From positions 1 through 40,563 of IMG/VR virus record IMGVR_UViG_3300006738_000023: a DNA stretch of 40,563 bases; one strand, written 5' to 3'. Each line of letters begins with the position of its first letter. The first letter of the stretch is position 1. Positions 64-32,542 of this stretch are shown here, one piece after another. Made by a program: the position numbers and the translations under genes. The notes below the pieces were generated by a model. The model was not told the origin of the DNA. It made no database searches and saw nothing but the letters and a program-made list of their open reading frames with translations. Source of the stretch: a virus.

Positions 64-3000
64 AGCACCAAAGCCGCTTGCATAACCAATCGGTGCGGCG
101 GCTGAGGCACCAAAGCCCAACGCACTACCAATGCCGCCAATGGCATCGCCCACGTAGGGCAGCTTTTTAGCGCCGTTGTATAGCGAGCTAATGCCGTTAA
201 GGTTGAAGCCACCACCAGCGCCCCCTTGGCCACCCACCCCCGGAATACCCAGCGCGCCGCCCATCTGCTGCGTGAACTCCACGACGATGGGCTTTAGGGT
301 GGCTTGGTAGGCCAGCTCGGCTAGCAGGCGCTTAAAGCCGTCTAGCAGCTGGTCGGTAAAATCATCGAACGAATCGAACGCGCCAGCGAAGGCGTCGGCA
401 AAGGTTTCATCAATGCGGTTGCTGGCCTCTTCCCATGCCCGCGCCATTTCCTGCGCTGCCGGGTCGGCATCGATCGCTAGCTGCTGCATTTCTTCGCGCA
501 CCGCGCCCATCATGCGGGTGTACTTGTTACCGTCAATTTCACCGGCCTGGTACAAGTCGTTAATCTGAGCAATGGCGGCGGTTAGCTGCTCCGCTTTCTG
601 CCGATGGCTGTCGTACTTGCCCACCAGGGCGGCGGTCTGCTTTTCGTACTCTTCGGCACCCGTGGCGGCGCGCTGGTACTGCTCAGCGCTCCAGCGCACC
701 GCTTCGCCATAGGCTTCTTCGCTAATGGTGCCTTCGGCCAAGGCGCGATCCAGCACCGCTAGGCGCTCGATGTATTCCGCATGGTCAGCCAGTAGTGGGT
801 CCATCTCCTGCTGAACGCCTACCAGGGCTTTGGCTTGGGCCTCTGCTGACTGCTGGGCGGCCTGGGCTTGGCGTTGCGCGGTGCGCTCGGCCTCCTCGGC
901 AGCGCGGCGTGCCTCTGCGGCGGCTTCCTGCTGGGCTTTGCGCTGGTCTTTCAGCGCTTCATCCTGCACCGACAGAAACACGCTATAGCCGCGCATGATG
1001 TTGTTCACATCATCGCCCATGCCATCTAGGGCGCGGTTGGCCGCGCCCATGGCTGAGCCGCCGTCTCGGGTCGCGGCGATGCTTTCGCGCAAGCGGTCGT
1101 TGTACTTGGCCCACGCGTCCAAGGTGGTGGCTGAGGGTGCGCCACCGTTGACGGCTTGGCCGCTATTCTCGGCACCTTGAGCCACATCGTTAAACGCTGT
1201 TTCAAGCGTTTGCAGCAGCCCGCCCAGCTCTTCTACCGTTACGCTGCCTTCGCTGTACTCTGCCGCCCACAAGCGAATTTGACGCATAGCACTATCAGGA
1301 ATGCTCAGCTGGTCCTGCAAGCCGTTCAGCATTTCATCTAGGCTTTGCGCGCCGCTCTCTACCGCCTCAAATCCGGCGTTCACTTCATCAAAAAACGCCC
1401 GCGCTTCGGCACCGCTGGCATCCTCAAAGCCGATGCTTAACACCTCTTCGCGGATTTTAGACAGCGCGCTCCGGGCTTTTTCGACTTCCTCTTGGTAGCG
1501 GTCGCCCCACTTGATCATTGCCGCTCGTTGGCTTTCAACGCTCAGCTCTTTGAAGTCCGCAATCACGCTTTCAAGCGGCGCGTTCATATCGGTTAGCGAG
1601 CTGCTAACGTCGTCGCTGCTATCGCGGAACAGGAAAAACGCCGAAGCGGCCAAAGTAGCCACGCCAAGGGGACCGCCCACTAACGCCATCGCGCCAGCAG
1701 CACCACGGCTTACCGCCGTTAGCGTTCGCTGGGCAGCCGTGTTCGCGGCCACCGCTGCCGTGTTGGCTGTCGCGGCGGCAGTGGTGGCGGTGGTGGCCCG
1801 CGCCAGATCCACCTTAGCAGCGGATAGCGTGCGGGCACTGGCGGCGCTTTGCACTTCGGCAGCGTTCAAGGCGCGCTGGGCAGCGGCAGACTGGGTAGTT
1901 AACGCCATTTCAGTACGGCGAATTTCCGCTAACCGCGTGAGCGATTGCTGCCGCCCGGTCGCGCTAATCTGTGCTTGCAGGCGCTGGGTTTCCAGCACGC
2001 GCTCTGCGGCCATTTGCTGCTGTGTGAGCTGGATAGAGCGCAGCTGAGAAGCAGCCTCAACCTGCGCGGCCTGCGCACGCTGTGCCGCATTCGCGGCGCT
2101 ATTCAATGCCGCGACGCGCTCCGCTTCTGCACGGCGGGCCGTGGCCAACGCCGCCCCGGTTTCACGCTCAGCGGTAATACCTGCTTGAATGGCTACGGCT
2201 CTATCAGCTTGGGCCTTTTTAACGGCGGCTACTGACGCCGCGCCAAGCGCGCCTACCATGCGTCCTGCAAGCGTACCGCTTAACAGAAGCGTAAAATCAG
2301 TAACGTTGTCTACTACCTCGCCCATACCGCCTAGTGTTTGGGTGAGGTCTTTTGCAACATCTGCAACAAAAATAATGCCGGGCGCCCACTCAGAAGCCAC
2401 CGCATTAGCAAAAGCAGTGCCCAGCGCCGTCAGCTCATTAAGCGCTTGCGATGCTCGCTCTATGCTGTCAACGTCGCTTTGAGGCAGGGCAACGCCCAGC
2501 TGATCGGCAAGGGAGATTTGATCCCGTAGCGCGGCGGCGTTGTTTTCTAACAGCGGCAGCAGGCGGCTAGCGTCGTTGGCCAACGACTCCATGAAAAAGA
2601 TTTTTTCGCCCTGGGTGGCCACCCCGTCGAGCGCTTCGCCAATGGCGATCAACTGCTGATCGGGGCGCATCGCCATCAGCGTATTGATATCGAGGTTCAG
2701 ACGCTCGAAAAGGTCGGCAGCCTCACCACCGCCGGTCGATACAAAATCACCAATCTTCTCGCTGGTGTCTTTGAAAATATCGCCCATCTTGCCAGCGCCA
2801 AGATTGACACTTTGAGCGGCAAACTCCCATTGCTGCAACGTTTGAACGCTAACACCCACCGAACGCGCCAGCGCGGCCTGTTCAGCCACAACACGGGTCT
2901 GAGCTACTGCCATCGTACCCATAGCAACGGTAACGGCAGCGCTAACGGTAGCCAGCCTACGCGCATACACGCTAACACTTTCAAAGCTGGATGCTGTTTC

Positions 3001-3132
3001 CTCGCTTTGACGCTGGGCGCGCTGCATTTCACGGGCCATATCCGCGTTGGCTTCTTGCAGCTCACGGGTGGCCTTTACGCCGCTAGAACTGTCGCCCTTA
3101 ATGACAAACTCAGTGGTATATTGCTTTGACGA
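1..3132 (-). CDS. Tail tape-measure protein, N-terminal 1044 codons (continues across the circular junction into 37594..40500)
   Basis: Absent from the supplied ORF track because it runs off the left edge. ATG at 3132..3130 with GAGGT 9 nt upstream. Manual translation gave no stop down to base 1 (MSSKQYTTEFVIKGDSS...FKDTSEKIGDFVSTGGGEAADLFERLNL..., Ala/Gln-rich coiled coil, then a Gly-rich hydrophobic segment). Lowest codon coordinates are 1 mod 3 on both sides of the junction, so the frame is continuous. Confidence 0.85.
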
Positions 3133-4971: not shown

Positions 4972-5934
4972 TTACTTGAAGTACAGCACCAGCTCGTCAT
5001 CACCGTCTAACGGCAAGAATCGGGCATCGCACTGGTAGTGGGTAATGCCGTCGCTGTCCTGCTCGCTCATACCGGCTAGCTGCACCTTAGGGGCGCGCAG
5101 GCCAACGATGTTGCCGGGCACCGTGCCATGCTCAAACGATACTGCCCCAGTGGTCACCACTTCGTGGGACTCTACCTTCTGGTAAACATCAAACTCGGCA
5201 ATACGCGGTGCCTGAAACGCTACCTGCCCAGTGGGCTGGCTGTCGGTAATATGCACGCCCTCGTAGTTGGGCAAGTTGCGGTAGGTGACGGTGTTAGCCA
5301 GGTCAAAATTAAGATTTTGACCAATCGCCTCATAGCCAAGCACGGTAAAGGTGCTGGTGTTTTGGAAATTCACCGGCACTTCATCGGCTTGGTTTTCGGT
5401 CGTCAGCGTGATGGGCGCAACGGCGGTGGGCCGCTCATATAGCCCGGTCATGGTGAACGATAGCGTGGGCAACCCTGCCGACTGCCCTGCACCGGTGACC
5501 GTCCCGCGCACGCCTTTGATGAGCTGCTGCTGGCCATCGTGCAGGTAGTAAATAGTGACGGAATCGCCTTCTTCACTGGTGCGGGTGTAGGTCACCTCGC
5601 CTGCGTCCAGGTCTTCCACTTCCTGCATTTGGCAGGCGCGCAATAGCAGGCCAAGCGCCGGGGCGGTGGCAGACGTACCAATCACCGGGGCGGTACCGCT
5701 GCCGCTCCACGGCACGGTGAGCTGTAGCTGCGTGTTGGGGCCGGTGTTGATTTGTGCAAACCCGCCCAGCTCTGGGCGCATCCGGGTACGCTCTACCGTG
5801 TTGCCTTGGTAGGGCGTAGGGGTTAGCTCGGTTACCAGCATCAACACGCCCTCTGAGATTGGGGGCGCGACGCCGTAGGTGGTTTCTAGGCACACCACGG
5901 CGGCTTTCTTACGCGTCAGTAGCGGCGTTGACAT
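4972..5934 (-). CDS. Major tail (tube) protein, gpV position
   Basis: 320-aa ORF between the tail-completion genes and the chaperone. ATG at 5934 (MSTPLLTRKK) has AAAGG upstream; the track start at 5943 is a GTG. Assignment is mainly by synteny. Confidence 0.6.
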   Translation of the reverse strand: MSTPLLTRKKAAVVCLETTYGVAPPISEGVLMLVTELTPTPYQGNTVERTRMRPELGGFAQINTGPNTQLQLTVPWSGSGTAPVIGTSATAPALGLLLRACQMQEVEDLDAGEVTYTRTSEEGDSVTIYYLHDGQQQLIKGVRGTVTGAGQSAGLPTLSFTMTGLYERPTAVAPITLTTENQADEVPVNFQNTSTFTVLGYEAIGQNLNFDLANTVTYRNLPNYEGVHITDSQPTGQVAFQAPRIAEFDVYQKVESHEVVTTGAVSFEHGTVPGNIVGLRAPKVQLAGMSEQDSDGITHYQCDARFLPLDGDDELVLYFK

Positions 5935-16240: not shown

Positions 16241-17509
16241 TTACCCCGCCGCCCCTTGCCACCACTGGGGCCGGTCGCTGTTGTGATAAAACGACGATCT
16301 TGGTTCTGTCTCGGTCAGAAACACGCTAAAACCACGCTCACACAGCCATTTATGCCAGCGCTCCAACGCGTCGAGAATCTGCCGCTCTGCGTAGGTGTGA
16401 ATGTAAGTACGATCTAGTTTTGTTAGGGCGTGATTTAACAGCAGCTCACCGGCTAGATACTCGACCCCGAGGTCAGCCCATGTAGTCCTGGCGAGCTTAC
16501 GCAGATCGTGAGAATGCCACCGCGCACCGCTGGCACTCACCACCAGATCAAACACAGCTGAACGGGATAACGGCTTACCCTTCGATGCACCAGGAAACAG
16601 ATACACGCCCCGGTAACCGTTCGCCTGCTGATATGCTCGGTAACGGGTCAACAGCGTGACAGCCATGGGCGTTAACGGCAGGCGGTGTTGTCGTTTGGAT
16701 TTTGTATTGTCGGTGGGGATAGTCCACGTGCGCGCGTCGAGATCGAACTGCCCCCACTTGGCTAGCCGCGTCTCACTGATACGGGTGCCGAACAGCAGCA
16801 TCAATAACAGCAGAAAACACCCCGGCGGCTCGCACGAACGCAGGGCGCGTATCACCTCGGGCACATCGGCAGCGGTCAGCGCACCCGCTTTAGCTGGGGT
16901 TTTCGCGTCGATGAAGTCGCCCACATTCACCCCGGCGAACGGGTCAGCATCCAACAGGTTCAGCTTACGGGCTTGCTTGAACGCGGCCTTGATCACCCCA
17001 AAAATCAGGCGCACATAGGCCACGGAATAATGCTCCTGTAGCGGCCACACCAACCCGCTATCGATAGACGCGGGCGTAATGCCCGCCAGCGGCTGGCCAC
17101 CGAACAGGGGCAATAGGTGCCGATTCACGGCGGTTTTGATCGATGATTTTCGAGTAGCGGATAACCGGCCATGGGATGCCGAACGGTCACGATACCAACA
17201 CAGCAGGTCGGCCACGGTTTCCCACGCATCGACGCCCACCGGCCCGGCAGGGTCAAGCGCCAGCTTGGCTTGAATCTCCGGCAAGCGCGCCAGCAAAGCG
17301 CGGGTGGTCAGCTCCGGGTAATTGCCCACCCGGTGCCAGTGGTCACGCCCACCGGCATAGCGCACCACGTACCAGCTCGCCCGCTCACGGCACGCATGAA
17401 AACGCACCCGCACCGGGTAGCGCGGGTCGCGTAACTGAGTAATCGAAGGGTCTTGTATGTGACGCTTGATAGCCGCGTCAGAGAGAGTAACCGCGAGGGT
17501 TTTGGGCAT
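16241..17509 (-). CDS. int: Tyrosine integrase, P4-like
   Basis: 422 aa. Catalytic signature: GTRISE (Arg), HDLRK (His-x-x-Arg), LLNH, and RTYIHTY (Tyr). N-terminal arm-binding-like domain. Confidence 0.9.
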   Translation of the reverse strand: MPKTLAVTLSDAAIKRHIQDPSITQLRDPRYPVRVRFHACRERASWYVVRYAGGRDHWHRVGNYPELTTRALLARLPEIQAKLALDPAGPVGVDAWETVADLLCWYRDRSASHGRLSATRKSSIKTAVNRHLLPLFGGQPLAGITPASIDSGLVWPLQEHYSVAYVRLIFGVIKAAFKQARKLNLLDADPFAGVNVGDFIDAKTPAKAGALTAADVPEVIRALRSCEPPGCFLLLLMLLFGTRISETRLAKWGQFDLDARTWTIPTDNTKSKRQHRLPLTPMAVTLLTRYRAYQQANGYRGVYLFPGASKGKPLSRSAVFDLVVSASGARWHSHDLRKLARTTWADLGVEYLAGELLLNHALTKLDRTYIHTYAERQILDALERWHKWLCERGFSVFLTETEPRSSFYHNSDRPQWWQGAAG

Positions 17510-17571
17510 GGGCTCAAACTCCGAGACAGCAACGCCCCCGCCTGGGGGTCAATGCGCCGGGCTGAGCCGTT

Positions 17572-17609
17572 GCGTTATTGCGTTATATCACGCTAGCGTT
17601 ATAGCGTTC
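17572..17609. repeat. Five GCGTTA/TCACGC boxes in 8-bp register, upstream of int
   Basis: GCGTTA at 17572, GCGTTA at 17580, TCACGC at 17588, GCGTTA at 17596, GCGTTC at 17604. Box starts are exactly 8 bp apart. Confidence 0.8.
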
Positions 17610-17821
17610 TAATTAGTGATAGGGGTTACTCGATGCGCCGGAACGTAGCGAATGCGTGACTTATGCTCCATATCCCTCCAATTCCGGTCACCAAACACCT
17701 TTAGCTTTAAGCGACCATCCGGCATTTCCTTCAAGACGTGACAACGCATGTGATAACGCTTCACCCATCGGCAGCAGTGATAACACTCTAGTAAGTGAGT
17801 AGCGTTTTCAGATGTCAGCAT
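17609..17821 (-). CDS. Cys/His-rich small protein, unknown function
   Basis: 70-aa ORF (CYHCCRWVKRYHMRCH) in a visibly lower-GC patch. Confidence 0.5.
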   Translation of the reverse strand: MLTSENATHLLECYHCCRWVKRYHMRCHVLKEMPDGRLKLKVFGDRNWRDMEHKSRIRYVPAHRVTPITN

Positions 17822-17858
17822 TCTAGGCTCCCGACAGGAAAATCAAGGAATAAGGATT

Positions 17859-17872
17859 GCGTTATTTAACGC
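17859..17872. repeat. Two-box unit GCGTTA-TT-TAACGC upstream of ORF 17609..17821
   Basis: Same boxes and the same 8-bp spacing as the other arrays. Confidence 0.6.
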
Positions 17873-17885
17873 CAGTGTTACACCC

Positions 17886-18083
17886 TCAAGGCGGGCCGAT
17901 AGCCTGCCCAATCAACCAGACAAGCAACGCGATACACGCCGCTACAACCCCGGAAAGAAAACCAGCAGCTAAAAAGCTTTCAGCACTCCAAAGCCAATCC
18001 GGCGGCGGATCTTTACTGACAAAGGCATAAAACAGCGCATACCACAGCGCCACAAGCACAGCGCGGGCAAAGTGCTTTTTCAT
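17886..18083 (-). CDS. Small membrane protein (2 TM)
   Basis: 65-aa ORF with two hydrophobic helices. ATGA overlap with the upstream gene. Confidence 0.55.
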   Translation of the reverse strand: MKKHFARAVLVALWYALFYAFVSKDPPPDWLWSAESFLAAGFLSGVVAACIALLVWLIGQAIGPP

Positions 18084-18466
18084 AAGCCGTCACGCTCCCG
18101 CGTGCGATCTTTCAGCGCCTCTAACGCCCGCTCGATACCCTGCAGCGCCTCGGCGTTGTACAAATCGGCATGCGGCCCATCTTGGAACCGCTCCAGGCGG
18201 TCGGCACACGTCGCCAGCACCGCTTCCAGCGTCACGCCGTTGGGGCCAACCTCCTGCGGGTTACCGTCCTGAAAGCTGATACACCCCAGCACCTGCCCCC
18301 GGCCTTCCAGCAGCTCAGCCTCAGCGCCCACGCCAATGATGTAATGGTTTTGTGCGCCACCTGGGGAGTATGGCCCGTGAGCGATCACCGCTTGGCCCAT
18401 GTCACCGCGACCGTTAGGGGTGACGGCATGCCCGGTCACTAACCGGGGCTGATTGAGATTAGGCAT
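18080..18466 (-). CDS. Hypothetical protein
   Basis: ATG at 18466 overlaps the upstream stop (ATGCCTAA). The C-terminal segment (ISFQDGNPQEVGPNGVTLEAVLATCADRLERFQDG...ALEALKDRTRER) recalls a widespread small phage protein family whose function I cannot assign. Confidence 0.5.
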   Translation of the reverse strand: MPNLNQPRLVTGHAVTPNGRGDMGQAVIAHGPYSPGGAQNHYIIGVGAEAELLEGRGQVLGCISFQDGNPQEVGPNGVTLEAVLATCADRLERFQDGPHADLYNAEALQGIERALEALKDRTRERDGL

Positions 18467-27492: not shown

Positions 27493-28137
27493 ATGGGATA
27501 CAAGATTGCCTTCGTGAGCCAAAAGGGCGGCGTCAGCAAAAGCACCCTAAGCCGGGCGCTGGGCACCACCTACGCCGCCGCTGGCTGGAATGTGAAAATA
27601 GCCGACCTCGACATCAACCAGTCTACCTCGTTTACGTGGCTGCAGCGCCGCCTTAAAAGTGGCGCATCGCCGGAAGTCGCGGTTGAAACCTTCGGCACGG
27701 TGGCCAGCGCTCTAAAGGTAGCTGACACCTACGACCTAATGATTTTCGACGGCGCGCCCCACGCCACCAAAGCCACCGCCGAAGTGGCCCGGCTTGCGGA
27801 TCTCGTCGTTCTACCCACCGCGCTAAGCGTTGACGACCTTGAACCCACCGTAAGGCTGGCCAACACACTCACCGGCCAAGAAGGCGTGCCCATCGACCGT
27901 ATCGCTATTGCGCTGAGCAAAGTGGGCAAGAGTAAAACGCAGCTGCAGGATGCCCGCGCCTACCTCGCCCATACGCCCTATTTTGTACTCGATGGCCAAG
28001 TACCCGAGCGCGACGCGTTTGTATTAGCCCAAGACAAGGGGCTGTCGATTGTTGAAACCCCCTTCAAAGGCCCGAAGGCCCAAGCGGATGAACTGATACA
28101 AAACATCATCAACCGCTTTGAATCACTTGTTAATTAA
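27493..28137 (+). CDS. parA: ParA-family partition ATPase (small, type Ib)
   Basis: Deviant Walker A SQKGGVSKST, A' IADLD, Walker B LMIFDGAP. 214 aa with no N-terminal HTH. Confidence 0.9.
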   Translation: MGYKIAFVSQKGGVSKSTLSRALGTTYAAAGWNVKIADLDINQSTSFTWLQRRLKSGASPEVAVETFGTVASALKVADTYDLMIFDGAPHATKATAEVARLADLVVLPTALSVDDLEPTVRLANTLTGQEGVPIDRIAIALSKVGKSKTQLQDARAYLAHTPYFVLDGQVPERDAFVLAQDKGLSIVETPFKGPKAQADELIQNIINRFESLVN

Positions 28138-28180: not shown

Positions 28181-28423
28181 ATGGCAAAGCCAAGCATGAA
28201 ACCCAGCAGCAAAGGCGCACCGCCCACAGCAGCCACCCCCGGCCCGGTGGTAGGCAACAACACCAGCAAGCCGGAAAGCGGCGAAAAGGTGCCGCTTAAT
28301 TTCCGCGTTGATCCTGAAATGCGCCGGGAGTTTAAAGCGTTTGCCGTAGATCATGACATGCAAATGGTGGACGTACTCAAGGAAGCCTGGGCAGCGTACA
28401 AGCGGGAAAAAGGGAAGGGCTAG
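28181..28423 (+). CDS. Ribbon-helix-helix ParG-like centromere-binding protein
   Basis: 80 aa. Disordered basic/Pro-rich N-terminal tail, then an RHH pattern (KVPLNFRVDPEMRREFKAFAVDHDMQMVDVLKEAWAAY). Immediately downstream of a type Ib parA. Confidence 0.7.
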   Translation: MAKPSMKPSSKGAPPTAATPGPVVGNNTSKPESGEKVPLNFRVDPEMRREFKAFAVDHDMQMVDVLKEAWAAYKREKGKG

Positions 28424-29849: not shown

Positions 29850-30134
29850 CTAATCGCCCCGGAAATTGTTTTTGAGTATCCAGTTATCCGGCGTGCCGGT
29901 GTTTTGACGCCGGGCGTGGGCCGCTGCCTGCTGTGATCGGGTACGGGCAATCACGCCAATGGCCAAGCGATCTAACCGGCGGCTGCCTGGGTGCTGCACA
30001 TAACCCACCTCGGCACACGCAGCGCATGGGAAGCGGTGAAAAAGCCCATGCGTAAAGCCGTGGCCGTTGCAGTGCGTGCAAGTGGTGGCCTGCAGTTGGG
30101 CAAGCGTGCGGGGAAGGGAAGGCGGTAGCGTCAT
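29850..30134 (-). CDS. Small protein with a DnaJ-type zinc-finger motif
   Basis: CTHCNGHG (CxxCxGxG) plus CAACAEVG. Confidence 0.5.
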   Translation of the reverse strand: MTLPPSLPRTLAQLQATTCTHCNGHGFTHGLFHRFPCAACAEVGYVQHPGSRRLDRLAIGVIARTRSQQAAAHARRQNTGTPDNWILKNNFRGD

Positions 30135-30350
30135 GCGCTTAGTTTACCGGGGGTTGGGGGTTATGTCGCGCTAGCGACATGCAAGCCGCCCACTGAACTA
30201 TAAGCAGGCATTATAGGTGCGCGGCGAACGGGCGTTAGCCCGCCCAACTATGCGGAACCCCTTGCCACTGCTAAACGGGGTTTGGGGTTTAGCGGGGTCC
30301 AGGGGTGCAACCCTTGGGACAACCAGCCCGGCAGGGCTGGGCGTCAGTGT

Positions 30351-30560
30351 AGAGCGTTTCTGCGCTTGCGCAGGCATTTAAAGCCCTTGACCTTGTGCTC
30401 TTAAGAGAGTTTCCGCGCTTGCGCGGGCATTGTGGATAAACCCCACGCTAGTGGGGGTTAGCTGAACCTATTTAATTACATAAGAAGAGCATATTAACGG
30501 TGTACAGCTAATTTATTGCCATATCACCTAACTTTTATTTCAAATCACTTAATTTTACAT
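30351..30560. other. Candidate plasmid-type origin of replication (downstream of repA)
   Basis: Two 27-bp direct repeats, each with a GCGC-TT-GCGC palindrome (30352..30378 and 30405..30431, 24/27 identical, 53 bp apart). Perfect DnaA box at 30431..30439. AT-rich stretch with ATCACYTAAYTTT repeats at 30523 and 30544, 21 bp apart. Confidence 0.55.
30431..30439 (-). promoter_or_regulatory. DnaA box (TTATCCACA on the minus strand)
   Basis: Plus strand TGTGGATAA is a perfect 9/9 match to the consensus. Confidence 0.6.
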
Positions 30561-30751
30561 CTTTAAAGGGGATTGGAATCAGCGGCGGGGATCGGGCGTT
30601 TCGGGGTCGGTTTCGGGCGTAGATCGAAGGGATTTTGCGCCAGCGGGGCGCTAAAACAGGCAGGGAAACGGGGCAAGGGTAGCACCCAGCCACGGGCTAA
30701 GCGCCCGGCGTGGGGCGCTGCGTGGCATTCTGGGGTGGGGTTAGCGGCGGG

Positions 30752-31717
30752 CTAGTGTCGTCGCTGCCGGTCTAACCACTCTTCATACGGCGGGTATTTG
30801 ATGCGTACCAGCTTGTTAACCTCGGCATAGCTGGCACCGGGGTTATCGCGCACCACCTGGGCAAAGTAGGCGTTTGCCTCTTGGTTATAGCGGCGCTGCA
30901 GTTCTTTTTCATCGTTGGCGTCGGGTAGATCCTTCTTACCCCGGCGCTGCTTCTGCATCGCTCTGGGGCCGCTGCCTGCCATCGCTAGGCGGCTACGGGC
31001 CTGGGCGGCGTCGTACGCCTTGGGGTGCTGCTCGCGGTGCTTACGGCGGGCTTTCTTAATGCGGTTGCTGCACCAGTCGCGGAACTCCTTAAACTTCTGG
31101 TAGCCCACACGCCCCAGCGCCAGCAGAAAATCCGGGTTGAGTAGCTTCACAGCAGGCCGGGCGCGCTTAGTACCGTCGGCTTTCACCTCATGCTGCAAAT
31201 GCACGGTGAACGCGCCAGCGAGCTTCAAGCGCCGGAAGGCGCGCCAAAAGCGTTGGCTAGGCTCTGGGGCTTCGGGGGTGCTGCCGGGTGCCAGCAGGCC
31301 CGCCACGCGGGCAATTTCCGCACAGCTGCGGTGCTTGAAACCGCCATCGGGCAGGGGGGTGCCCACACGCAGACTGGCGAACTCGGTAAACTGGATAATG
31401 GCAGAAAGTACCAGCGACTCAGCAGCGCGGGCCTCGGATCGGTTACAACGGGGGTTACCATCGGCGTTCGCCTTACCGTTCAAATTCGCCAGGGTGGGCA
31501 ATAGGCCGGGGCTGTTGTAATAGGCTTTGGCACCGTCCACCAGCGCTTGCAGGGTGGCGGGTAGCCGCCCCTTTTTCAGCGGTTGGCAATAGCGGTCAAA
31601 TTCCCCTTTAGCAGGGTCGTGGCCACACCGGTTACCGGTTCCCCAGTATTTGCCGGGGTGTTCGTACGGCACGCGCCCCCACTTGCGGGGCTGCGCGTTC
31701 TCTGCTGCAGCATCCAT
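30752..31717 (-). CDS. repA: Plasmid-type replication initiator, IncFII RepA-like
   Basis: ATG at 31717 (the track start at 31723 is TTG). The central region (RSCAEIARVAGLL...SQRFWRAFRRLKLAGAFTV...ARPAVKLLNPDFLLALG) parallels R100 RepA (ITTLAIECGLA...ITRATRALTFLSELGLITY...YIPTDITFTSALFAALD). Basic C-terminus. The replicon context also supports the call. Confidence 0.55.
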   Translation of the reverse strand: MDAAAENAQPRKWGRVPYEHPGKYWGTGNRCGHDPAKGEFDRYCQPLKKGRLPATLQALVDGAKAYYNSPGLLPTLANLNGKANADGNPRCNRSEARAAESLVLSAIIQFTEFASLRVGTPLPDGGFKHRSCAEIARVAGLLAPGSTPEAPEPSQRFWRAFRRLKLAGAFTVHLQHEVKADGTKRARPAVKLLNPDFLLALGRVGYQKFKEFRDWCSNRIKKARRKHREQHPKAYDAAQARSRLAMAGSGPRAMQKQRRGKKDLPDANDEKELQRRYNQEANAYFAQVVRDNPGASYAEVNKLVRIKYPPYEEWLDRQRRH

Positions 31718-31773
31718 TCGCAAAATCTCGCTTGAGACTTGCCCGCGTCTTGTGCAGCAGTTAAACTCTGAGG

Positions 31774-31854
31774 AGTCGGTTTTGTGCCCCAGCCTTTAAG
31801 GTTTGCTGCCCAAAACATCCGAGAAGCCCCAGCGCCAACTGGGGCTTTTCTTTT
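31774..31854 (+). ncRNA. Candidate countertranscript (CopA-like antisense RNA) against the repA leader
   Basis: Plus-strand TTGCCC (31739..31744), 17 nt, TAAACT (31762..31767). Plus-strand terminator AAGCCCCAG-CGCCAA-CTGGGGCTT followed by TTCTTTT at 31824..31854. The predicted RNA is about 80 nt and fully complementary to the repA 5' leader. Confidence 0.4.
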
Positions 31855-31960
31855 GGGTGTCTATCTAGTTAATTTGTATGTCTTTTTTGCCTTCTAACCA
31901 ACGCCGCCCGGCGCTGGTCATCAACTCACTGTTTGCCAATCCTAGCATTACAAAAGCGTT

Positions 31961-31979
31961 TTGACACGAACTGTGTTAA
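31961..31979. promoter_or_regulatory. ACAC-N5-GTGT operator upstream of the repA leader
   Basis: TTGACAC-GAACT-GTGTTAA has 6/7 symmetric arms and the same architecture as the cI/cro operators. Confidence 0.5.
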
Positions 31980-32005
31980 AAAAATTTGCTCAAAACGCTC
32001 TGGGC

Positions 32006-32233
32006 CTAGGTGAATGCGGGGCTAGTGGGGCCGTGTTTGCCCGCGCGCTGCAGCTCATGCCCCAGCGCATCGCGCACCATGGCTAGAATCATGTGGCTGC
32101 CCGCGTGCGACTCTTCGCCGGTCACCTGCATAAATTCCATCATCACATCAATGTTCTGCAGCGTATCGCGCTGGTTAATGCCTACCAGTACGTTAGTGTT
32201 ATATCGCTGCGTCGTTCCCTGCTGCTCGCTCAT
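32006..32233 (-). CDS. 75-aa protein upstream of repA (CopB-position gene; SOS-controlled antirepressor candidate)
   Basis: ATG at 32233 with GGAGG 8 nt upstream (MSEQQGTTQRYNTNVLVGINQRD...). A LexA box lies 41 nt upstream. Confidence 0.55.
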   Translation of the reverse strand: MSEQQGTTQRYNTNVLVGINQRDTLQNIDVMMEFMQVTGEESHAGSHMILAMVRDALGHELQRAGKHGPTSPAFT

Positions 32234-32273
32234 TGTGTCGCCTCCCCTGCGCGCGTTTGCGCACACCTAAAAA

Positions 32274-32289
32274 CTGTTTATACATACAG
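32274..32289. promoter_or_regulatory. LexA (SOS) box CTGT-N8-ACAG
   Basis: CTGTTTATACATACAG has perfect CTGT/ACAG arms and an AT-rich 8-nt spacer. It is the only such site I found in the window. It overlaps candidate -10 elements (TATAAA, TATGAT) on the minus strand. Confidence 0.65.
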
Positions 32290-32542
32290 CATCATACTAC
32301 ACCGCATGACGCTAATGGAAAATTGCTAAGCGGGTTTATGCGCCTAAGCGATATGCTCAAGGGTTAGTTTACAGAGTTGCGCCATTTGCCAAAATTAAAG
32401 GCAGCGGCGCACTACTACCCCTATCAAAGCACGTTTTTCAGGCAGCGCAAGAAAAATCCAACCTTATGAATTTATTGATATTCTTTAATAATTTAATGAA
32501 CAACTAGCAGACACCTAAACGACACTTAATCGCCGTGGCAGC

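Follow-up and report, generated by a model that had tools for sequence, protein, structure and literature searches.

How is the virus genome of IMG/VR record IMGVR_UViG_3300006738_000023 replicated and maintained, and to which family of replicons does its initiator belong? The window investigated here is that whole record, 40,563 nucleotides in length, and all positions refer to it. A preliminary description of the same DNA had proposed an IncFII-style basic replicon, laid out as in R1/R100, within a lambda-like phage. The present analysis indicates that positions 32335-30257 on the minus strand very probably form the replicon by which a temperate phage-plasmid, a circle of 40.5 kb, is maintained as a plasmid, with an initiator (Rep) of the RepA-Pa/pRA2/IncP-11 group, control by an antisense RNA and an origin located downstream of rep. 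The list of open reading frames (ORFs) agreed with the order and the coordinates previously given for the three leading parts of the replicon:

32233..32006, minus strand: small ORF of 75 amino acids, a candidate copy-number accessory that could repress the rep promoter or bind an RNA complex
288 nt between the small ORF and rep, minus strand: leader holding the antisense terminator and promoter
31717..30752, minus strand: rep ORF of 321 amino acids, a single winged-helix (WH) initiator of the RepA-Pa family

The identity of Rep was given by its plasmid homologues. A tblastn search with Rep returned 177-185 plasmid records, mostly from Pseudomonas and Aeromonas and some of them annotated as 'plasmid replication protein repA', and the earlier proposal of a RepA-like initiator therefore holds for a plasmid initiator, but not for IncFII RepA. 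The Rep of pP27494_2 from P. antarctica (MOB-suite rep_cluster_1024) was 46.7% identical over 94% of the length (7e-80), and pAsa5, a 155-kb conjugative plasmid of A. salmonicida (rep_cluster_1169), carries a rep homologue at the start of its record. The RepA of pRA2 (32% identity, 8e-11) and the repP-11A product of RP1-1, the IncP-11 archetype (30% identity, 4e-12), aligned over approximately 180-240 residues. A family profile searched against 1.8 billion representatives identified 763 clusters at E <= 1e-3. The 'RepA-Pa' family was named for pP27494_2 by Bardaji et al. 2017 and is defined by sequence (PMC5304414). Replication has been shown for the RP1-1, pRA2 and RepJ replicons, and one chromosomal RepJ homologue did not replicate. 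A mini-RP1-1 with repP-11A replicates in P. aeruginosa (bioRxiv 10.1101/2024.09.03.610885, supplement), and the pRA2 mini-replicon replicates and needs the small gene, the stem-loops, repA and downstream sequence (PMC5304414). On sequence grounds Rep is firmly placed in the RepA-Pa/pRA2/IncP-11 group of single-winged-helix initiators. The literature on pAsa5 and pRAS4 yielded nothing on this rep.

Neither Rep nor its family profile matched a replication family in Pfam, NCBIfam or the PDB sequences, and the sole library match of Rep was phrog_20951, of unknown function. The AlphaFold2 (AF2) model of Rep, with a predicted local distance difference test score (pLDDT) of 88, consisted of an N-terminal segment, one WH domain at about residues 94-193 and a long helical C-terminus. 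Foldseek searches of this model in PDB and BFVD gave weak matches to generic winged-helix, PadR, RTP or DnaD-like proteins and to one unnamed homologous viral protein.

Other initiator classes were considered and rejected. A RepE/Pi-like fold was ruled out, as Foldseek with a confident AF2 model found nothing specific. An iteron-type initiator with two WH domains (Rep_3/RepE/Pi/TrfA) was rejected because there is one WH domain and no match to Rep_3, TrfA or the PDB; moreover, the locus has two or three short repeats, compared with the four or more iterons of the Rep_3-type class. A primase-type initiator of the ColE2/RepA-PFP kind was rejected since neither PF03090 nor PriCT was matched in Pfam.

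The N-terminal part of Rep contains an invariant GNRCGH(D/N)P motif at residues 28-35 (window 31615-31636). Across 82 family members with identities as low as 22%, its G, N, C and H were kept in 90% or more of cases. The motif is without known function and is unusual among winged-helix initiators. It was also seen, as GNRCGHDP, in a distant Rep homologue of 311 amino acids in the gammaproteobacterial metagenome-assembled genome CBDALO01, where at least 15 copies lie on separate contigs and are approximately 90% identical over 1.25 kb. At the one locus inspected, parA- and parB-like ORFs precede the gene. These copies suggest either related plasmids in a swarm or a genome that is highly multipartite.

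The state of the element carrying rep bears on the same question. Its first 63 nt are identical to its last 63 nt, and the contig is therefore a closed circle of 40,500 bp, devoid of host flanks. Family searches identified genes for terminase, portal, protease, major head protein and tape measure, and the window further encodes a tyrosine integrase, a CI-like repressor, an anti-repressor, an RdgC-like protein and ParA:

16241-17509: tyrosine recombinase ('integrase'), with PF00589 as its sole family match
27493-28137, plus strand: ParA ATPase (phrog_164 ParA-like, 5e-34; Pfam CbiA/ParA)
28181-28423, plus strand: ParA partner of 80 amino acids, matching only phrog_6024 (function unknown)

Two labels of the preliminary description found no counterpart in these searches: the integrase had been termed P4-type, and the ParA partner had been assigned to the ribbon-helix-helix proteins, of which no family was matched. 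As had been noticed before, no O/P, helicase or primase families were found among the early-region ORFs tested, nor was any replication protein family other than that of Rep detected in the ORFs tested.

The closest relative, NZ_CP080628.1, is a plasmid of 45,853 bp, likewise circular, from the complete genome of the isolate Halomonas qaidamensis XH36. Its Rep is 88% identical to that of the window, and it shares the phage genes, integrase, ParA and replicon; its phage genes include terminase, portal and lysis genes. Contigs or plasmids of 34-46 kb that carry phage tail genes along with a Rep homologue also occur in Salinicola, Kushneria, Aeromonas, Edwardsiella, Pseudomonas and Pontibacterium, and isolated phages of Aeromonas and Pseudomonas encode such homologues too. 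The proposal of a phage-plasmid is supported by the circular contig, the phage genes, ParA and the XH36 relative: structural and regulatory phage genes stand with Rep and ParA on one replicon. The supposedly unusual mosaic, on the other hand, is no single occurrence, because the XH36 plasmid has the same architecture and contigs of the size of the element occur in several gammaproteobacterial genera.

The same data bear on the idea that the region is no replicon but part of an ordinary integrative prophage, the winged-helix protein regulating transcription and the circle being packaged or induced phage DNA. The integrase and the CI-like repressor agree with such a regulator, but no tRNA or attP-like feature was found in the window, ParA is adjacent, and the assembly of the complete XH36 isolate genome keeps the relative as a circular plasmid of its own. 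Likewise the protein matches no curated family, many distant members of the Rep family match generic helix-turn-helix families (HTH_Crp_2, MarR), and some distant homologues are chromosomal, as is the RepJ homologue that failed to replicate. The close homologues, however, are presumed to serve as rep in bona fide plasmids such as pAsa5, homologues have been validated experimentally, and the non-coding module downstream of the gene is more conserved than the gene itself. A regulator of this kind is highly improbable, and a plasmid initiator is the reading pursued below.

A few further observations concern the element and its relatives. The recombinase has been retained both in the window and in the free circular XH36 plasmid; by analogy with Cre in P1, it may serve multimer resolution rather than integration. 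The junction of the circle falls within the tape-measure gene, which on the minus strand probably extends from about 3200, across the junction, to 37594; this makes it likely that the plus-strand ORFs at 1511-3129 are spurious. In Aeromonas and Edwardsiella, plasmids of 37-53 kb have P2-like tail genes with the same replicon. One of these, pACil-blaVCC-1 of A. caviae, bears the name of the carbapenemase gene blaVCC-1, and resistance genes can evidently ride on phage-plasmids of this replicon type. Just upstream of its replicon the XH36 plasmid has, at 16577-18258, a gene of the reverse transcriptase/maturase family and a four-helix-bundle gene, a region absent from the window and possibly a retron or other defence cargo.

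The control of rep was sought in the leader, for which an antisense promoter and terminator pair had been described. The following features were recognized on the plus strand:

31821..31858, plus strand: SaL1 hairpin (31821-31850) of 12 pairs with a 6-nt loop, followed by a T run (tail TTTTGGGTGT)
31739..31767, plus strand: putative antisense promoter, with -35 TTGCCC (31739-31744), 17 nt and -10 TAAACT (31762-31767)
31774..31858, plus strand: predicted antisense RNA of approximately 85 nt, with a small 5' stem-loop and a terminator stem-loop, the ends being placed by prediction

The terminator of the pair was recovered as the best terminator match in the region. The promoter was uncalled by a generic promoter scan, yet its TTGCCC-17 nt-TAAACT arrangement is conserved in the family: in an alignment of the leaders of 14 replicons both hexamers and their position are kept, appearing on the sense strand as AGTnTA and GCAAGC/GGGCAA. 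No plus-strand gene that the SaL1 terminator could serve lies within 1.5 kb upstream. In 13 relatives SaL1 is positioned at -135..-100 from the rep start with differing stem sequences, and it is found further upstream in pP27494_2 and pAsa5. Twelve distinct versions of the hairpin, pRA2 included, all folded stably (-14 to -28 kcal/mol), and the stems covary, since two or three pair types occur at most stem positions of these 12 sequences. The covariation was obtained by folding each sequence and tallying the pairs, as MAFFT with RNAalifold misaligned the hairpin and returned 6 pairs only. The predicted antisense RNA as a whole folds at -35 kcal/mol (z = -3.2 relative to shuffles).

The loop of SaL1 reads CGCCAA in the antisense RNA and UUGGCG in the target stem-loop of the rep mRNA. 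The UUGGCG loop was present in half of the 12 versions, namely in the window, XH36, the Aeromonas phage-plasmids, Pontibacterium, Pseudomonas sp. SJZ074 and pP27494_2, while the remaining loops are of a related YUNR type and that of pRA2 is CUGGAA. In Kushneria pakistanensis (about 5850-5881) the loop is inverted, with CGCCAA in the rep mRNA and UUGGCG in the antisense RNA, which implies that a U-turn-type loop can sit on either partner. In Rfam no family reached the threshold and CopA was not found; sub-threshold matches resembling small RNAs or counter-transcribed RNAs fell at 31785-31862 (plus strand). A terminator, a conserved putative promoter, covarying stems and a UUGGCG-type loop were all identified computationally for the predicted antisense RNA.

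A comparable arrangement is the REx-C module of Pseudomonas replicons, in which SaL1 is a terminator with flanking A runs, the promoter lies in the last stem-loop, and no such sequences were found outside Pseudomonas in the 2017 work (PMC5304414). The same work maps REx-C incompatibility to the stem-loop region of a putative antisense RNA (PMC5304414). The control region of the window fits this pattern, as SaL1 is flanked by A/T runs and the putative antisense promoter is in the last stem-loop before rep. The window and its relatives in Aeromonas and the Halomonadaceae appear, from their sequences, to extend REx-C-like control beyond Pseudomonas and into phages.

Two routes from the antisense RNA to rep were examined and found little support. 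Coupling through a tap-like leader peptide is not conserved, the extent of the ORF following SaL1 varying among relatives. An ATG or GTG does follow SaL1 in several of them, directly after the hairpin in the Halomonadaceae. The stop of this ORF falls within rep in the window (140 nt inside) and in XH36 (about 50 nt inside), whereas it precedes rep by 38 nt in Kushneria and coincides with the rep start in Pseudomonas Au-Pse12. A pseudoknot of the IncI/IncB type was discarded since inspection of the leaders revealed no complement of the SaL1 loop near the ribosome-binding site of rep.

Upstream of SaL1 on the minus strand, a second set of features was recognized:

32270..32335, minus strand: putative promoter region of the small ORF, with the conserved stretch TGCGGTGTAGTATGATGCTGTAT; it was proposed from conservation and was uncalled by the promoter scan
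31939..31999, minus strand: putative rep promoter, with -35 GTGTCA (31962-31967), 17 nt and an extended -10 TGCTAGGAT (31939-31947)
31990-31999 and 31955-31964: candidate operator, inverted repeat AGCGTTTTGA / TCAAAACGCT overlapping the rep promoter
31964-31976: candidate operator, inverted repeat ACAC-N5-GTGT overlapping the rep promoter

Identity to XH36 was approximately 45-55% upstream and rose to at least 75% from about 32315 downward, which sets the upstream limit of conservation. The putative rep promoter directly follows the stop codon of the small ORF, and its region is nearly 100% conserved with XH36. Homologues of the small ORF are located upstream of rep in XH36 (70% identity), Salinicola, Kushneria, Aeromonas, Pseudomonas and Pontibacterium, with the conserved pattern NPL..(R/G)DT...I......D.D..PG....L..V..A. 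The AF2 model is a two-helix hairpin with helices at residues 13-38 and 41-66. No Pfam, PHROG or NCBIfam family was matched by the small protein and no similarity to R100 CopB was found; Foldseek returned helical hairpins, among them Rop at rank 40, which was not significant. Different small proteins are encoded upstream in pP27494_2 and pRA2, and the one in pP27494_2 looks ribbon-helix-helix by eye. An ACAC-N-GTGT palindrome beside a TG-extended -10 was present at the same place in the Salinicola, Kushneria, Aeromonas, Pseudomonas and Pontibacterium relatives. As the palindromes overlap the rep -35 and recur in relatives, the favoured role for the small protein is that of a repressor.

Downstream of rep, a GC-rich spacer followed by an AT-rich block, a perfect DnaA box and two 27-bp repeats had been described. 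All were recovered, the repeats being two 28-nt units each with an AATGCC and a hairpin:

30751-30565, minus strand: GC-rich spacer, 63-69% GC, 170-220 nt long in all relatives
30564-30459, minus strand: AT-rich origin core, 33% GC against a background of approximately 61%, the probable Rep-binding and unwinding region
30546-30552 (TTAAGTG), 30525-30531 (TTAGGTG) and 30505-30511 (TTAGCTG), minus strand: phased 7-mers in the AT-rich core
30431..30458, minus strand: GC hairpin CCCCCACTAGCGTGGGG and then the perfect DnaA box TTATCCACA (box 30431-30439)
30404-30431 and 30351-30378, minus strand: two AATGCC + hairpin units, 28-nt direct repeats, 89% identical at a spacing of 53
30257..30336, minus strand: further GC-rich stem-loops, conserved inverted repeats 3' of the origin core

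The 40.5-kb window has no perfect DnaA box other than this, and chance alone would give 0.14 over its whole length. The box is identical in XH36, reads TTATCCCCA in Salinicola and Kushneria, and follows the AT block in the Halomonadaceae; in the Aeromonas relatives it is reversed and precedes the AT block. The distance from the rep stop to the AT block is 150-250 nt in the six relatives profiled, and in 13 loci the TTAAGTG core begins 170-221 nt after rep. An alignment of 11 replicons showed TTAAGTG and two further TTA triplets, approximately 21 nt apart, to be invariant, as was an AATGCC some 120 nt further along, followed by a hairpin in one or two copies whose stems covary. The stems of the AATGCC units in the window are CGCG/TGCG around GCAAGC. 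The exact 11-mer TTAAGTGATTT occurred once, downstream of rep, in each of 13 loci. Relative to XH36 the origin stretch (180 nt) was 92-98% identical, the most conserved part and above the rep coding sequence. A hairpin CCCAAGGG...CCCCTGGAC has counterparts in the Salinicola and Xylophilus loci, with a similar GC-rich hairpin at the same place in Aeromonas, and the stem-loops at 30257-30336 resemble the 'complex stem-loops 3' of rep' of REx-R modules. In pRA2 a DnaA-like box and then two TTAAGTGTCGGG repeats 22 nt apart are found 150 nt after repA. Relatives with a Rep of only 40-88% identity have the antisense terminator hairpin, the AT block and the repeat/hairpin units at the same positions, and this conservation places the features beyond chance.

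The TTAAGTG repeats are the better candidates for Rep sites because the recognition helix of Rep is highly conserved, whereas the AATGCC hairpins could be sites for Rep dimers or single-strand priming signals. The GC-rich spacer may be likened to CIS by analogy only. An origin upstream of the small ORF, in the manner of pRA2 and RP1-1, was rejected since that region is 43-55% identical to XH36 and not conserved. Because the authors of those two plasmids place the origin upstream, it is conservation that argues for the downstream position.

Two observations lie beside the origin. A GCAAGC (or GGGCAAG) motif is common to the centres of the origin hairpins (30362-30372 / 30415-30425) and the antisense -35 (31739-31744) in all relatives, and could be a common Rep site for autoregulation. 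The first gene after the origin, at 29850-30134, encodes a protein of 94 amino acids with CxxC...CxxC zinc-ribbon motifs (phrog_5085) and weak DnaJ-CXXCXGXG and anti-TRAP-like matches, and is preceded by a conserved TATAAT promoter. In Salinicola and Kushneria a similar Cys/His-rich ORF starts after the origin.

The repeats also bring up an iteron-controlled replicon, in which copy number would be set by titration and handcuffing of Rep at the TTARSTG 7-mers, the 28-nt repeats or both, with the leader hairpin as a mere terminator or insulator. The repeats do exist and are conserved, and '12-bp repeats' and 'four potential iterons' are described by the authors of the homologous RP1-1 and pRA2 replicons; the window, nevertheless, has two or three short repeats only, and some relatives have a single AATGCC hairpin. 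As for the leader, its hairpin can terminate in both directions in pP27494_2, pRA2 and Pseudomonas sp. SJZ074, but the sense-strand tail in the window is not T-rich. A mere terminator needs neither the loop motif nor the antisense promoter at its fixed 17-nt spacing, both conserved family-wide, and the mapped incompatibility of the related REx-C (PMC5304414) likewise points to the antisense-RNA stem-loop region. We consider iteron control quite improbable and retain control by an antisense RNA.

The resemblance to IncFII, from which the preliminary description started, was compared part by part. In R100, copB (255 nt) is followed by a gap of 238 nt, tap/repA and a non-coding stretch of 939 nt, and the order, sizes and spacing of the parts match the replicon of the window. 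Both have a counter-transcript, a predicted one in the window, aimed at a leader hairpin, and the CopT loop of R100 (UUUGGCG) contains UUGGCG. This loop motif, 5'-rUUGGCG-3', is known to be targeted by the ColIb-P9 Inc RNA (Asano et al. 1998). The origin, a proposed one in the window, falls in both cases 3' of rep and combines a DnaA box with an AT-rich segment. In R1 oriR the DnaA box lies beside repA; the order in the window, with AT block, DnaA box and hairpins, differs from this. The proposed R1/R100-like layout accordingly stands for the order of parts, the predicted counter-transcript and the probable downstream origin, but not for similarity to CopB, a conserved tap-like coupled peptide or the order within the origin.

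A true IncFII member would have a diverged PF02387 RepA, CopB, CopA, tap coupling and a cis-acting Rep using CIS and oriR. The hidden Markov model check proposed for 30752..31717 gave no match to PF02387 (IncFII_repA), and at E <= 1 neither Rep nor any of 45 close homologues matched it, while among 82 diverse family members a single distant one touched the model, sub-threshold (E = 4e-4). With hhalign, the 82-member Rep profile was aligned to the single R100 RepA sequence over 137 columns that take in the N-terminal helices and run on to cover the WH domain, with a probability of 47.6% (E = 1.9e-4); a shallower Rep profile gave 1.4%. A search for IncFII RepA homologues yielded only sequences more than 83% identical, and tblastn against plasmids at least 5000 near-identical records. 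In GenBank phage records, canonical IncFII RepA produced three partial matches to Yersinia phages (tblastn). A recent survey places IncFII_repA among the single-WH initiators, as it does the group of Rep, but the closest replicons by sequence are pP27494_2, pRA2 and IncP-11 and not plasmids of the IncF/I/B/L groups. The ATG right after the target hairpin in the Halomonadaceae recalls tap, although the ORF that it opens is variable in length and end point; the small ORF is unlike CopB, and no CopA-like family emerged from the covariance-model search. Homology of Rep to IncFII RepA is, judged from these alignments, remote at best, and membership in IncFII is improbable. The RepA-Pa/pRA2/IncP-11 assignment is therefore kept.

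Within that group, pP27494_2 shares with the window a SaL1 core GCCCCnG-UUGGCG-CnGGGGC flanked by A runs, the complex stem-loops after rep and the origin signature of TTAAGTG followed by AATGCC hairpins. It is a mobilisable plasmid of Pseudomonas, in contrast to the Halomonadaceae phage-plasmid of the window, its SaL1 is about 200 nt before rep instead of about 120 nt, and its small protein looks ribbon-helix-helix where that of the window is a helical hairpin. The pRA2 and RP1-1 replicons have a small gene of about 80 codons upstream, a stem-loop leader and a long non-coding stretch after rep, and pRA2 shares the DnaA-like box and, 150 nt past repA, the pair of TTAAGTG repeats. The C-terminal third of Rep is, however, unrelated and the small proteins are dissimilar, and the iterons and AT-rich oriV that the authors place upstream have no conserved counterpart in the window.

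As a temperate phage with plasmid replication and partition genes on an apparently extrachromosomal circle, the element resembles P1, N15, SSU5 and the groups of Pfeifer et al. 2021 (PMC7969092). It differs from known phage-plasmids by its lambda-like head genes and retained tyrosine integrase, and the antisense-controlled RepA-Pa type is absent from the main text of that census (PMC7969092).

Several points weigh against the reading of a phage-plasmid replicon with antisense control and a downstream origin. A circular contig would also result from a virion genome with terminal redundancy. The antisense promoter missed by the generic scan is weak by consensus, and neither an ORF of constant length after SaL1 (80 codons in the window, 56 in XH36 and 18 in Kushneria) nor a complement of the loop near the ribosome-binding site marks a route from the antisense RNA to Rep synthesis. 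The model of the small protein is moderate (pLDDT 70) and its fold matches are non-specific. Finally, iterons and an AT-rich oriV are placed upstream of the small gene by the authors of pRA2 and RP1-1.

The replication of the element may be depicted as follows: Rep would probably act on an origin that starts approximately 190 nt past its own stop codon, by binding to the phased TTAAGTG-like repeats, to the AATGCC-hairpin units or to both. Host DnaA would occupy the adjacent box, and the AT-rich block would melt. A counter-transcript of about 85 nt would be initiated at the conserved leader promoter and end at SaL1, and pairing of its CGCCAA loop with the UUGGCG loop of the rep mRNA leader would reduce Rep synthesis. 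The 75-residue helical-hairpin protein would add a second, family-specific control, most likely by repressing the rep promoter through the palindromes at the -35. ParA and its partner would segregate the copies, and the tyrosine recombinase could resolve multimers or permit occasional integration. A wider reading, in which the replicon is the only replication system of the phage, both as plasmid and in lytic growth, with the antisense RNA and the 75-residue protein as switch, in which Rep is a distinct branch linking IncFII RepA to the Pseudomonas REx replicons, and in which a cross-genus group of 35-46-kb phage-plasmids has spread on this replicon, is offered tentatively and is in its entirety rather unlikely.

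What is new here is modest, and consists of the occurrence of the control module outside Pseudomonas and in phages, the origin signature of the family and the cross-genus set of phage-plasmids. A probable replication and copy-control module has now been identified for phage-plasmids of the Halomonadaceae, Aeromonas, Pseudomonas and Edwardsiella. The replicon is missed by standard typing, as no Pfam or NCBIfam model exists and the protein is often annotated as 'hypothetical'. The UUGGCG loop of IncFII and IncI plasmids is now found in phages, within an antisense module once reported as confined to Pseudomonas. The origin signature of TTAAGTG repeats, DnaA box and AATGCC hairpins provides a search handle for such replicons and is usable for minimal vectors in Halomonas, an industrial chassis. 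The same Rep family is used by pACil-blaVCC-1 in A. caviae and by large virulence plasmids of A. salmonicida, which gives it clinical and veterinary relevance for the tracking of such plasmids.

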